Below, in pieces: positions 1-54,922 of a DNA stretch of 64,000 nucleotides. The position numbers and the translations under genes are program-made. Below the pieces are notes generated by a model. That model was given only the letters and a program-made list of their open reading frames with translations, ran no database searches and was not told the origin of the DNA. Numbering within the stretch: position 1 is the first letter of the stretch; each line of letters opens with the position of its first letter. The DNA lies in assembly GCF_055900595.2 (NCBI RefSeq), contig NZ_CM148325.1. One strand, written 5' to 3'.

Positions 1-2857
<2,857 letters not shown>

Positions 2858-3030
2858 TCACAACCCGAAGATGTTTCACTTCTGATTGCGAAAATTTGAG
2901 AGACTCACGAACAACTTTCGTTGTTCAGTGTTTCAATTTTCAGCTTGATCCAGATTTTTAAAGAGCAAAACTTCGCAGTGAACCTTTGCAGGTACACTCT
3001 GAAGTATTTTTTATTTAATCACTACAGAGA

Positions 3031-3106
3031 TGGTGGAGCTATGCGGGATCGAACCGCAGACCTCCTGCGTGCAAAGCAGGCGCTCTCCCAGCTGAGCTAT
3101 AGCCCC
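3031..3106 (-). tRNA. alaV: tRNA-Ala (UGC), rRNA spacer tRNA
   Basis: Reverse complement reads GGGGCTATAGCTCAGCTGGGAGAGCGCCTGCTTTGCACGCAGGAGGTCTGCGGTTCGATCCCGCATAGCTCCACCA (76 nt, CCA encoded). Confidence 0.95.
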
Positions 3107-3148
3107 ATAACATGTAGTTAAAACCTCTTCAAATTTGCGGTGCAAATT

Positions 3149-3225
<77 letters not shown>

Positions 3226-3293
3226 GTAGAGGTTTTACTGCTCATTTTCATCAGACAATCTGTGTGAGCACTGCAAAGCACAGTTCTTTCAGG

Positions 3294-4835
<1,542 letters not shown>

Positions 4836-35688: not shown

Positions 35689-35979
35689 GTTACGAATCCT
35701 TGAAAACTTGTCTCAGTCAGACCAGACAGTCACACACAGTGGAAGTGTGCTAAGTATAGCCCTGATTAAACATATTACGGGTAATCGTCTGGATTATTAG
35801 GCTATTTTATTTGCCATTTTGGCACCGGGCAGTGCTCGCCATCCTCACGTACTTGTGTACGCTCCGGTTGCTGCGCGCTGGCCGTGACCAAACTACCTGC
35901 AACAATAACGCCTTATAACCAGACTTACGCCCCCGCGATACTTACGCGGAATCTTACCCTTATTTATCCATCACGGGAA

Positions 35980-36851: not shown

Positions 36852-37703
36852 TTAAGACTGCTTGGACATCGCAGCAACTTCTGCTGCAAAGTCAGTCTCA
36901 ACTTTCTCGATGCCTTCACCTACTTCGAAGCGGATGAAGCCAGTCACTTCAGCGTTATGCTCTTTCAGCAGCTGACCAACAGTTTTGCTTGGTTCCATAA
37001 CGAACGGCTGACCGGTCAGAGAAACTTCGCCGGTGAATTTCTTCATGCGGCCTTCAACCATTTTCTCTGCGATTTCTTTCGGCTTACCAGACTGCATCGC
37101 GATATCCAGCTGAACCTGGTATTCTTTCTCTACCACTTCAGCGGAAACGTCTTCCGGTTTGATGAATTCTGGTTTGCTTGCAGCAACGTGCATAGCGATG
37201 TGTTTAACCAGCTCTTCGTCAGCGCCTTTAGCAGCAACCAGAACGCCGATACGCGCACCGTGCTGATAAGAACCCAGAACGTCGCCTTCCAGCGCAGCAA
37301 CGCGGCGAATGTTGATGTTTTCACCGATTTTCGCTACCAGCGCAACACGTTCTTCTTCGAACTGTGCTTTCAGAACTTCAACGTCAGTGATTTTGCCAGC
37401 AACAGCTGCGTCCAGAACTTTGTCTGCGAACGCCTGGAAACCAGCGTCTTTTGCAACGAAGTCAGTCTGGCAGTTAACTTCCAGAATGATGCCGTAGTTG
37501 CCGTCGATTTTGGTTTTGATCACGCCGTCAGCAGCAACGTTGCCTGCTTTTTTCGCTGCTTTAATAGCACCGGACTTACGCATGTTTTCGATTGCCAGCT
37601 CGATGTCGCCGTTAGCTTCAGTCAGTGCTTTTTTGCAATCCATCATGCCTGCGCCAGTACGCTCACGCAGCTCTTTTACCAGGGATGCGGTAATTTCAGC
37701 CAT
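36852..37703 (-). CDS. tsf: Elongation factor Ts
   Basis: 283-aa ORF. Confidence 0.96.
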
Positions 37704-37754
37704 TCTAAAATCCTCGGAGATGTGATCTGCCCGGCATTAAACCGCACAGATATA

Positions 37755-37786
37755 AAAGTGAAAAAGGGGGCCATATGCAGGCCCCC
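37755..37786 (-). terminator. Intrinsic terminator / attenuator between rpsB and tsf
   Basis: Minus strand GGGGGCC-TGCATAT-GGCCCCC hairpin followed by TTTTTCACTTTT. Confidence 0.7.
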
Positions 37787-37809
37787 TAACCAAACGTGTA
37801 CTACCTGGT

Positions 37810-37940
37810 CTATAAGGGCTCTCCCCCTTCATATTTCGCGCCGCAGATGCGTTGTCTTCGCTCGCTCATCCCGGTCACTTACTGATGTAAGCTCCCGGGA
37901 ATTCTCGAGCTTGCCGCCTTTCTGCAACTCGAACTATTTT
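37810..37940. repeat. ERIC (IRU) element
   Basis: Contains GATGTAAGCTCCCGGGAATTC and, on the other strand, AAGTAAGTGACCGGGATGAGCG, close matches to the two ERIC core inverted repeats, in the usual imperfect-palindrome arrangement. Confidence 0.6.
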
Positions 37941-37960
37941 GGGGGAGTTATCAAGCCTTA

Positions 37961-38908
<948 letters not shown>

Positions 38909-46215: not shown

Positions 46216-47640
46216 TTACTGCATTAACAAGTAGATGGTGCTGTCGCCGCGCTGAATGTTCAGTGCCAGCACAGACGGTTTGCTGTCGAGAACTTTACGC
46301 AGTTCAGCGATGTTTTTCACTGCCTGCTGGTTCGCACCAATAATCACATCACCTTTCTTCAGGCCGATCTGCGCAGCTGGAGTGCCCGTTTTCACGTTGT
46401 TCACCACCACGCCCTGATCTTTGCCTTTGTTGCTCATCTCAGCGCCTTCAATGCCGTTGAAGATGGTGCTGGAATCAACCTGATTCTGGCTGCTCTGCTG
46501 CAGTTCCAGGTTCACGTTAACCTGCTTCCCGTCGCGCAGTAAGCCCAGGGTCAGTTTGCTGCCTACCGGCATAGTGCCCACCTGAGCACGCAGTGCGGCA
46601 AAGCTGCTGATTGGCTTACCGTTCAGTGAGGTGATCACATCACCCGCTTTAATGCCCGCTTTCGCGGCGGAAGAATTCGGCAGAACCTGGCTTACGAAAG
46701 CACCGCGCTGGGCGTCAACTTTCATCGCTTTCGCCAGATCGGAGTTCAGCTCAGTCCCCATAATACCCAGCTCACCGCGTTTCACCTGGCCGTATTCCAC
46801 CATCTGCGAGGTCAGGTTTTTCACCATGTTACTCGGGATAGCAAAACCGATACCGATGTTGCCGCCGTCCGGTGCGAGGATCGCGGTGTTGATACCGATC
46901 AGTTCGCCGTTCAGGTTAACCAGCGCACCACCGGAGTTACCACGGTTGATCGCAGCATCGGTCTGGATGAAGTTTTCATAGTTTTCGGCATTCAGACCGC
47001 TACGCCCCAGCGCAGAGACAATCCCGGAAGTTACTGTCTCGCCCAGGCCGAACGGGTTACCAATTGCTACGGTGTAATCACCCACGCGCAGTGCATCAGA
47101 ATCCGCCATCTTAATTGCGGTCAGGTTTTTCGGATTCTGGATCTGGATCAGCGCGATATCAGAGCGCGGATCTTTGCCAACCATCTTCGCGTCGAACTTA
47201 CGACCATCGCTCAGCTGGACTTTAATCACCGTCGCGTTATCAACAACGTGGTTGTTGGTGACGACATAGCCTTTATCGGCATCAATGATGACGCCGGAAC
47301 CCAGCGCCATGAATTTTTGTTGCTGGCCGCCGCCATTACCGCCCTGGCCCCCCTGGCAGAACGGAGAGCTCTGGAACGGAGAACCTTCCTGGCAGAACGG
47401 AGAATCATCACCGAAGAACTGCTGGAAATTACGCGGCATACGCGGCGTATTAACGGTTGTGCTACCTTCTACGTTAATGCTGACCACTGAAGGCATCACC
47501 TTTTCGAGCATTGGTGCAAGGCTTGGTATCTGCTGGGCTGTCGTTGCTGAAGAAGTCTCAGCCGCCGTTGCAGAGAGCGGAGATAACGCCAAACCTAAAC
47601 TCAGAGCCAGTGCACTCAGTGCTAATGTGGTTTTTTTCAT
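46216..47640 (-). CDS. degP: Periplasmic serine endoprotease / chaperone DegP (HtrA)
   Basis: 474-aa ORF; signal peptide, trypsin-like protease domain with GNSGGAL active-site motif, two PDZ domains. Confidence 0.96.
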   Translation of the reverse strand: MKKTTLALSALALSLGLALSPLSATAAETSSATTAQQIPSLAPMLEKVMPSVVSINVEGSTTVNTPRMPRNFQQFFGDDSPFCQEGSPFQSSPFCQGGQGGNGGGQQQKFMALGSGVIIDADKGYVVTNNHVVDNATVIKVQLSDGRKFDAKMVGKDPRSDIALIQIQNPKNLTAIKMADSDALRVGDYTVAIGNPFGLGETVTSGIVSALGRSGLNAENYENFIQTDAAINRGNSGGALVNLNGELIGINTAILAPDGGNIGIGFAIPSNMVKNLTSQMVEYGQVKRGELGIMGTELNSDLAKAMKVDAQRGAFVSQVLPNSSAAKAGIKAGDVITSLNGKPISSFAALRAQVGTMPVGSKLTLGLLRDGKQVNVNLELQQSSQNQVDSSTIFNGIEGAEMSNKGKDQGVVVNNVKTGTPAAQIGLKKGDVIIGANQQAVKNIAELRKVLDSKPSVLALNIQRGDSTIYLLMQ

Positions 47641-47685
47641 GTATTTCAGTCTCGATTAACAGATAACGCAAAATTGCTGTGTTCT

Positions 47686-53641: not shown

Positions 53642-54922
53642 ATGAGTAAGTCTGAAAATCTATACAGCGCAGCGCGCGAGCTGATCCCTGGCGGTGTGAA
53701 CTCCCCTGTTCGCGCCTTTACCGGCGTGGGCGGCACTCCACTGTTTATCGAAAAAGCGGACGGCGCTTATCTGTACGATGTTGATGGCAAAGCCTATATC
53801 GATTATGTCGGTTCCTGGGGGCCGATGGTGCTGGGCCATAACCATCCGGCGATCCGCAATGCCGTGATTGAAGCCGCCGAGCGTGGTTTAAGCTTTGGTG
53901 CACCGACCGAAATGGAAGTGAAAATGGCGCAACTGGTGACCGAACTGGTCCCGACCATGGATATGGTGCGCATGGTGAACTCCGGCACTGAAGCGACAAT
54001 GAGTGCCATCCGCCTGGCCCGCGGTTTTACCGGTCGCGACAAAATCATTAAATTTGAAGGTTGTTACCACGGTCACGCTGACTGCCTGCTGGTAAAAGCC
54101 GGTTCTGGCGCACTCACGTTAGGCCAGCCAAACTCGCCGGGCGTTCCGGCAGATTTCGCCAAACATACATTAACCTGTACTTATAACGATCTGGCCTCTG
54201 TACGCGCCGCGTTTGAGCAATACCCGCAAGAGATTGCCTGTATTATTGTCGAGCCAGTAGCAGGCAACATGAACTGTGTTCCGCCGCTGCCAGAGTTCCT
54301 ACCGGGTCTGCGCGCACTGTGCGACGAATTTGGCGCATTGCTGATCATCGATGAAGTGATGACCGGTTTCCGCGTGGCGCTGGCTGGCGCGCAGGATTAT
54401 TACGACGTGGTGCCAGACCTCACCTGCCTGGGCAAAATCATCGGCGGTGGAATGCCGGTAGGCGCATTCGGTGGTCGTCGTGATGTGATGGATGCGCTGG
54501 CCCCGACCGGTCCGGTCTATCAGGCGGGTACGCTTTCCGGTAACCCGATTGCGATGGCAGCCGGTTTCGCCTGTCTGAATGAAGTCGCGCAGCCGGGCGT
54601 TCACGAGACGCTGGATGAGCTGACAACACGTCTGGCAGAAGGTCTGCGGGAAGCGGCAGAAGAAGCGGGAATTCCATTGGTCGTTAACCATGTTGGCGGC
54701 ATGTTCGGTATTTTCTTTACCGACGCCGAGTCCGTGACGTGCTATCAGGATGTGATGGCCTGCGACGTCGAGCGCTTTAAGCGTTTCTTCCATATGATGC
54801 TGGACGAAGGTGTTTACCTGGCACCGTCAGCGTTTGAAGCGGGCTTTATGTCTGTGGCGCACAGCATGGAAGATATCAATAACACCATCGATGCTGCACG
54901 TCGGGTGTTTGCGAAGTTGTGA
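53642..54922 (+). CDS. hemL: Glutamate-1-semialdehyde 2,1-aminomutase
   Basis: 426-aa ORF, PLP-dependent class III aminotransferase. Confidence 0.96.

Follow-up and report, generated by a model that had tools for sequence, protein, structure and literature searches.

The rpsB-tsf spacer and its attenuator

The window, by which we mean the whole 64,000-nt stretch of DNA that was analysed, carries on its minus strand the genes for ribosomal protein S2 and elongation factor Ts, rpsB and tsf, in a single operon (Table 1). They are separated by a spacer of 257 bp, positions 37704-37960, which contains an ERIC/IRU element read in the same direction as the two genes. The length and position of rpsB are those of b0169 in K-12, and the spacer is that of Escherichia coli, with 100% identity to many complete genomes and 99.6% to its K-12 counterpart, NC_000913 190600-190856, which is of the same length (257 bp). 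In the sense of transcription, the order of elements is the stop codon followed by TAAGGC, the filler TTGATAA, the 127-nt ERIC, AGCCCTTATAG, hairpin 2, the terminator stem-loop, its T tract, hairpin 4, the tsf Shine-Dalgarno region and the ATG. The ERIC and the terminator are separated by 34 nt, within which the small hairpin 2 lies. Hairpin 4, in the tsf leader, is largely conserved in the orthologous spacers of Enterobacteriaceae. Elsewhere in the window are an rRNA operon (1-4835, minus), comprising a 23S gene cut by the window edge, two tRNAs and a 16S gene, and a match to the HtrA 5'-UTR thermometer (RF02700, 77 bits) at 47635-47680, minus.

Table 1. Features of the rpsB-tsf spacer and its flanking genes, in order of transcription (window coordinates).
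Feature	Position	Strand	Basis or remark
rpsB CDS (ribosomal protein S2), upstream gene of the operon	38686..37961	minus	ORF and translation
Hairpin 1 (ancestral), base, 5' half, TAATAAGGCTT	37953..37963	minus	overlaps the TAA stop and a second in-frame TAA
TTGATAA junction filler	37954..37948	minus	7 nt; 6-nt bulge in the fold
ERIC/IRU element	37947..37821	minus	127 nt; transcribed in the standard-consensus orientation
ERIC left core repeat (complement of primer ERIC1R)	37885..37906	minus	3 mismatches
ERIC right core repeat (primer ERIC2)	37863..37884	minus	3 mismatches
Rfam RF02798 (CssrA) match	37766..37875	minus	ERIC right arm, hairpin-1 3' base, hairpin 2 and terminator stem-loop
Hairpin 1 (ancestral), base, 3' half, AGCCCTTATAG	37810..37820	minus	pairs with 37959-37955 in the folds
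Hairpin 2, ACCAGGTAGTACACGTTTGGTT	37788..37809	minus	MFE and centroid prediction
Intrinsic terminator, the rpsB-tsf attenuator	37787..37754	minus	stem-loop 37787..37765; T tract 37764..37754
Hairpin 4 in the tsf 5' leader, CTGTGCGGTTTAATGCCGGGCAG	37727..37749	minus	MFE and centroid prediction
tsf Shine-Dalgarno region, CGAGGAT	37716..37710	minus	coordinates
tsf CDS (elongation factor Ts)	37703..36852	minus	ORF

A strong terminator-like hairpin with a U tract had been recognized here in the initial annotation, and it proves to be the documented rpsB-tsf attenuator, at which an RNA 3' end has been mapped. A terminator scan returns the stem-loop AGGGGGCCTGCATATGGCCCCCT, with eight pairs of which seven are G-C, followed by TTTTCACTTT. 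SMRT-Cappable-seq transcripts that begin at the rpsB promoter (K-12 position 189712), and so run through the ERIC, end at K-12 190800 in both the M9 and the rich medium data sets; Term-seq places a 3' end at the same nucleotide, with exactly the terminator sequence found in the window. Coordinate mapping puts 190800 at window position 37760, within the T tract. According to the statement in Le Derout et al. 2010 (PMC2834685) that cites Aseev et al. 2008, monocistronic rpsB transcripts stop at the attenuator while about one third read through. The hairpin and T tract in the window are this known attenuator, a working terminator, and are the same in all respects as the element of Aseev et al. 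2008 as PMC2834685 relays it. The terminator is conserved at all gammaproteobacterial loci inspected. An altered attenuator is seen in an ERIC-less E. coli ST80 strain (NZ_CP031215), where the 5' strand of the stem has one G fewer, hairpin 2 is shorter by 2 nt and the T tract has become longer (CCCCCCTTTTTTTTTC). Either natural variation of the terminator or a homopolymer assembly error could account for this.

Identity and folding of the ERIC element

Next to the attenuator hairpin, the initial annotation had placed an ERIC/IRU element of about 125 bp with close matches to both core inverted repeats. The element measures 127 nt, and its identity is borne out by core primer sites, full-length alignment and multi-copy distribution alike. 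The site of primer ERIC2 (37884..37863, minus) abuts that of ERIC1R (37885..37906, plus), each with 3 mismatches in 22 positions, and matches to these primers appeared in none of 100 shuffled sequences. The two primer strings were verified in the literature, where they co-occur in 56 papers. Scanning metagenomes for the consensus core AGTGACTGGGGTGAGCG yielded 121 sites, and 106 of these align to the window ERIC. The consensus of 31 distinct full-length copies, TATACCCTAAATAATTCGAGTTGCAGGAAGGCGGCAACGCAGnGAATCCCCAGGAGCTTACTnnAGTAAGTGACTGGGGTGAGCGAGGAAAGCCAACGCACATGCAACTTGAAGTATGACGGGTATA, is 127 nt long, equal to the window copy, and the latter is 74-85% identical to these 31 independent copies across 103-135 aligned bases. 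At blastn sensitivity, the 136-bp segment that contains the ERIC is found at 54,063 places in 5,425 genomes; an E. coli genome has between 2 and 18 of them, the median being 11. The ERIC copies of K-12 have reportedly been catalogued, by Hulton et al. in 1991 and by Wilson and Sharp in 2006.

That the similarity should be fortuitous and the segment a uniformly conserved, non-repetitive operon leader, the alternative named in the initial annotation, is next to impossible: the termini of the window copy are indeed unlike the family consensus and the spacer ERIC is single-copy at megablast stringency, but such a leader is refuted by the repeat count and by the full-length alignment to dozens of independent, dispersed 127-nt copies with the same hairpin and family structure. 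The lack of the segment in the orthologous spacers of the other genera sampled also speaks against it.

The likeness to the ERIC/IRU family (Sharples & Lloyd 1990; Hulton et al. 1991), a 127-bp MITE-like imperfect palindrome, is extensive. The window copy shares its length, both core repeats, a long imperfect hairpin with compensatory changes, a dispersed multi-copy distribution, placement in a transcribed intergenic spacer by highly expressed genes and a presence/absence polymorphism between strains. It departs from the family in its ends, which read CTCCCCC/GGGGGAG where the family has TATACCC/GGGTATA and which are still mutually complementary. It departs also in its flanks, since a TA is found 1 nt to the left of the ERIC (in TTGATAA) and none on the right, so that a clean TA target duplication, as expected of MITE-like termini, is lacking. 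Finally, the 'empty' site of the ERIC-less allele differs by a 10-nt replacement, which is neither a clean TA-flanked insertion nor a simple excision scar. Judged by their sequence, the termini look like the diverged but co-evolved ends of an old copy.

Folding predictions agree with the long RNA stem-loop that had been ascribed to the element. By itself, the ERIC RNA is predicted to form one long imperfect hairpin at -61.8 kcal/mol (z = -7.6). The family alignment (30 copies) has 36 consensus base pairs, of which 14 show compensatory changes, which shows that the hairpin has been conserved by compensatory change. Double changes in the window copy affect four terminal pairs as well as columns 49/80 and 53/76 of the central stem, with pairing kept at each. 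Two-sided changes of this kind would be expected of an old copy whose hairpin is under selection.

When the whole spacer is folded, the MFE structure shows three modules apart from one another, namely the ERIC, hairpin 2 and the terminator. Around the ERIC stem, GGCU in the base of hairpin 1 pairs with AGCC, and AA pairs with UU too. Alignments to ERIC-less spacers show that the ERIC and the 7-nt filler TTGATAA substitute for 10 ancestral nucleotides, ACGCTCGTAC, that form the top of hairpin 1. The folds thereby depict the ERIC as nested in, and structurally extending, an older hairpin that directly follows the rpsB stop codon. We also considered an anti-terminator, in which the C5/G5 termini of the ERIC would pair with the G5/C5 stem of the terminator. 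It was rejected because both the MFE and the centroid structures keep the modules separate and because the ERIC stem, by far the more stable of the two, is the first to form.

Distribution of the element and of the ancestral hairpin

The full ERIC-bearing spacer is present in 4,094 of 5,426 complete E. coli genomes, including K-12, O157:H7 and strain 042. An ERIC-less junction is found in 1,329 of them, around a quarter, examples being Nissle 1917, an O25b:H4-ST131 strain, an ST80 strain and IAI39. We take Nissle 1917 and ST131 to belong to phylogroup B2, IAI39 to F and the three ERIC-bearing examples to A, E and D. The ERIC-less spacer is 134 bp long and reads GGC-ACGCTCGTAC-GAGCCC at the junction, which is the ancestral hairpin. 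Since a deletion cannot rebuild the top of that hairpin, the ERIC-less allele is either ancestral by descent or was regained by recombination.

Salmonella enterica also has a 257-bp spacer, with the same ERIC at an identical junction. An insertion common to Salmonella and most E. coli, with the ancestral hairpin intact in the remainder, therefore presents a small evolutionary puzzle whose solution is either an old polymorphism or the exchange of alleles by recombination. When E. coli is aligned with Salmonella, the ERIC has 8 differences in 126 columns (93.7% identity) and the rest of the spacer 6 in 120 (95%), to be compared with identities of 96.3% for rpsB and of 91.2% for tsf, the latter falling to 77.5% at third codon positions. 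A level of conservation similar to that of the rest of the spacer, and well above that of tsf third positions, fits a functional role as well as it fits structural constraint. Five of the eight differences in the ERIC lie in stems and in all of these pairing is kept or improved: they include an A-U to G-C exchange, the deletion from the terminal stem of a C together with a matching G, the replacement of a C by U with a G.U pair as the outcome, and the conversion of an A.G mismatch to A-U. Recent transfer between E. coli and Salmonella was considered separately and rejected, the difference profiles of rpsB and tsf being flat with no local patch of low divergence.

Wider sampling came from an EF-Ts search among genome contigs, with few Enterobacteriaceae among the matches listed and, among those same matches, none from E. 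albertii, E. fergusonii, Citrobacter or S. bongori. Exact-protein look-ups with S2 gave E. coli contexts only. All seven other Enterobacterales genera sampled lack the ERIC and keep the terminator. ERIC-less loci include three from Enterobacter (sp. Ag1, sp. Bisph1 and E. roggenkampii), those of K. pneumoniae and Klebsiella sp. BIGb0407, those of Superficieibacter, Yersinia and Photorhabdus, and one Enterobacteriaceae locus represented in three contigs. Pasteurellaceae and Aeromonas are likewise without the ERIC but with the terminator, and the Vibrio locus keeps the terminator too.

In place of the ERIC, these relatives other than Vibrio have a short hairpin, AATAAGGC-ACGCTCG..CGAGC-CCTTAT, right after the stop codon, its top further reduced in some. 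The AATAAGG...CCTTAT flanks of this hairpin occur where the ERIC is lacking in the sampled Enterobacterales and Pasteurellaceae and, in partial form, in Aeromonas. The 3' base contains a conserved GCCCTTAT in all species compared except Vibrio, at whose inspected locus the hairpin-1 flanks, GCCCTTAT included, were not found. Hairpin 2 is more patchily distributed: orthologous spacers contain it in Salmonella, ERIC-less E. coli, two of the three Enterobacter loci (Ag1 and Bisph1), Yersinia and Photorhabdus, and it is missing from those of K. pneumoniae, E. roggenkampii and Superficieibacter. As a side observation, the base of hairpin 1, UAAGG...CCUUAU (37953-37963 with 37810-37820), is nearly invariant from E. 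coli to Pasteurellaceae, Aeromonas having a partial form, and resembles a Shine-Dalgarno-like sequence paired to an anti-Shine-Dalgarno-like one. No covariation was seen in it among the loci compared, and we know of no function assigned to it.

On the evidence of these genomes, the ERIC is demonstrably dispensable both for operon function and for attenuation, because the terminator is conserved in the ERIC-less genera and 1,329 E. coli genomes do without the element. The existence of natural ERIC-bearing and ERIC-less alleles in an essential, highly expressed operon offers a ready-made test of whether the hairpin of an ERIC influences the fate of an mRNA in E. coli.

A second polymorphic insertion, of about 142 bp, was noticed in the pyrH-frr spacer (window positions about 35785-35929, minus). 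That spacer is 291 bp long in the window, K-12 and strain 042, and about 146-149 bp in IAI39, in several other E. coli loci, an ERIC-bearing one among them, and in Salmonella. This insert has no relation to ERIC; it belongs to a dispersed repeat that occupies a median of 5 places in an E. coli genome, and it may be the 'RSA' repeat of K-12, of around 150 bp.

Possible role of the ERIC and probable origin of CssrA

The segment from the right arm of the ERIC to the terminator stem-loop matches the Rfam family CssrA (RF02798) over the full model (1-111), with 136.6 bits against a gathering score of 93. Scores are 133.4 bits for the Salmonella locus, 53.6 for the ERIC-less locus of Nissle and 30-35 for unrelated copies of ERIC, which makes the family specific to this locus, a chimera of half a repeat and the attenuator. 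The original evidence for CssrA is a Northern band of about 110 nt in S. flexneri (Peng et al. 2011; PMC3071730), for which the 3' end was taken from a predicted terminator and the 5' end was approximate. The window sequence is like CssrA in its full-length match above the gathering score and in the locus, which is the same in Shigella, E. coli and Salmonella. It is unlike CssrA as described in that the 'sRNA' is here half a repeat element fused to an operon attenuator, and in that the ERIC-less E. coli locus reaches only 53.6 bits. Table 1 of PMC3071730 has cssrA flanked by map and rpsB; the Rfam model instead matches the rpsB-tsf spacer. The map-rpsB spacer carries a different RNA, t44/tff (RF00127, 84.6 bits; 38714-38800, minus), the S2-regulated rpsB leader, upstream of the operon as expected.

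An RNA fragment that began in the apical loop or the right arm of the ERIC and extended to the terminator would measure about 96-125 nt. SMRT-Cappable-seq has minor tsf-transcript starts at K-12 190705 and 190794, equivalent to window 37855, inside the right arm of the ERIC, and 37766, the last base of the terminator stem. Both may be artefacts of processed ends. A promoter scan found no sigma-70-like promoter in the ERIC region, and inspection of the sequence upstream of 37855 shows a poor -10 region (GAGCGA/GATGAG).

The explanation that we consider reasonably probable is that the ERIC occupies the apical part of a conserved hairpin upstream of the attenuator as a tolerated passenger, and that CssrA is a processing fragment. 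The ERIC is co-transcribed with rpsB, in an RNA that spans the rpsB promoter to 190800, and is predicted to fold on itself, stacked on the base of the old hairpin, so that the local RNA architecture is extended and not disrupted. It is the attenuator, not the ERIC, that divides transcription between rpsB mRNAs that terminate there and a smaller share of rpsB-tsf mRNAs that read through. The ERIC itself is most likely tolerated, and selection would preserve its hairpin since an arm left unpaired would lay nuclease-sensitive sequence open to attack or perturb the 3' end of a very abundant mRNA. What is mainly seen of it is probably a 3' fragment, stable and about 100-125 nt long, which consists of the right arm, the small hairpins and the terminator and has been reported as CssrA. 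As the source of that RNA we favour decay or processing of the abundant terminated rpsB mRNA over an internal start, and any effect of the ERIC on mRNA decay would be modest. Three observations sit less easily with this explanation. The conservation of the ERIC between E. coli and Salmonella, as noted, suits a function equally well; the start at 190705 means that CssrA, or some tsf transcripts, could be primary transcripts; and the junctions, with their 10-nt replacement and remodelled termini, do not resemble a clean TA-flanked insertion.

The ERIC might instead be an adaptive cis-regulator, its hairpin or an RNase E or RNase III site altering decay of the rpsB or the read-through mRNA and so tuning the ratio of S2 to EF-Ts, which the initial annotation had suggested the ERIC may help to set. 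There is a precedent in Yersinia, where ERICs at the 3' ends of genes affect transcript levels (De Gregorio et al. 2005, as relayed by PMC3184786 and PMC10969869), an effect that reviews attribute to an RNase E site becoming exposed in the 3' terminal repeat. Like those, the window ERIC is co-transcribed downstream of a gene and has an A/U-rich right terminal repeat, GAAAUAUGAA, that RNase E might plausibly attack if it were left unpaired; the element belongs to an abundant mRNA, sits by the attenuator, and is strongly conserved between E. coli and Salmonella, with compensatory changes. Unlike them, it has the stop codon on one side and on the other a strong intrinsic terminator by which the 3' end is already fixed and protected; terminated transcripts finish in a stable hairpin in any case. 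Moreover, about a quarter of E. coli and the seven other Enterobacterales genera manage without the ERIC while keeping the terminator and near-identical flanks. Modulation of mRNA decay by the ERIC is possible by this analogy, but adaptive tuning of the ratio seems unlikely.

REP/BIME sequences (Higgins et al. 1982, and later work) are intercistronic mRNA stabilisers. Like them, the ERIC is a palindromic repeat within an operon spacer for which a part in the differential expression of neighbouring cistrons has been proposed. It is unlike them in belonging to another sequence family, the stems of REP/BIME being much shorter and G+C-rich, and in that the differential expression of rpsB and tsf is already explained by the attenuator.

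Quite unlikely, in our estimation, is an independent gene for a trans-acting sRNA, composed of the ERIC right arm and the attenuator, with its start inside the ERIC and its end at the attenuator. In its favour, the Rfam match is high-scoring, a start at 190705 and an end at 190800 would yield an RNA of 96 nt, and the authors of PMC3071730 predicted a start site of its own for the RNA in the S. flexneri band. Yet that 5' end was only back-calculated from the size of the band, the promoter evidence described above is unfavourable, and decay of the abundant terminated rpsB mRNA is expected to leave the same fragment. In addition, the element is missing from the B2 and F strains examined. We know of no targets of CssrA.

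Co-option of the ERIC right arm and attenuator as a functional RNA, be it an sRNA that acts in trans and comes from the 3' end of a ribosomal-protein mRNA or an element altering attenuation or decay in cis, is a bolder idea and a very doubtful one. If it were true, presence of the ERIC (in about 75% of E. coli and in Salmonella) versus absence would be a functional polymorphism in the output of a core translation operon, one kept or exchanged across species and with the B2 and F strains examined among the ERIC-less quarter.

ERIC elements, the attenuator and CssrA have all been described before, so that the feature is of a known and ordinary kind. Literature searches turned up nothing specific to an ERIC in combination with rpsB-tsf. 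The finding matters little beyond housekeeping, but a CssrA that consists of half an ERIC joined to the rpsB-tsf attenuator does counsel caution with sRNA catalogues, as do sub-threshold matches of ERICs to other families. All the ERIC copies tested, namely six others, the Salmonella copy and that of the window (37825-37948), give full-length matches to V_AS5 (Vibrio RNA AS5), at 24-50 bits against a gathering score of 96, and some also have weak matches to Ysr49 and isrH. Several Rfam 'sRNA' families thus seem to be ERIC-related repeats.
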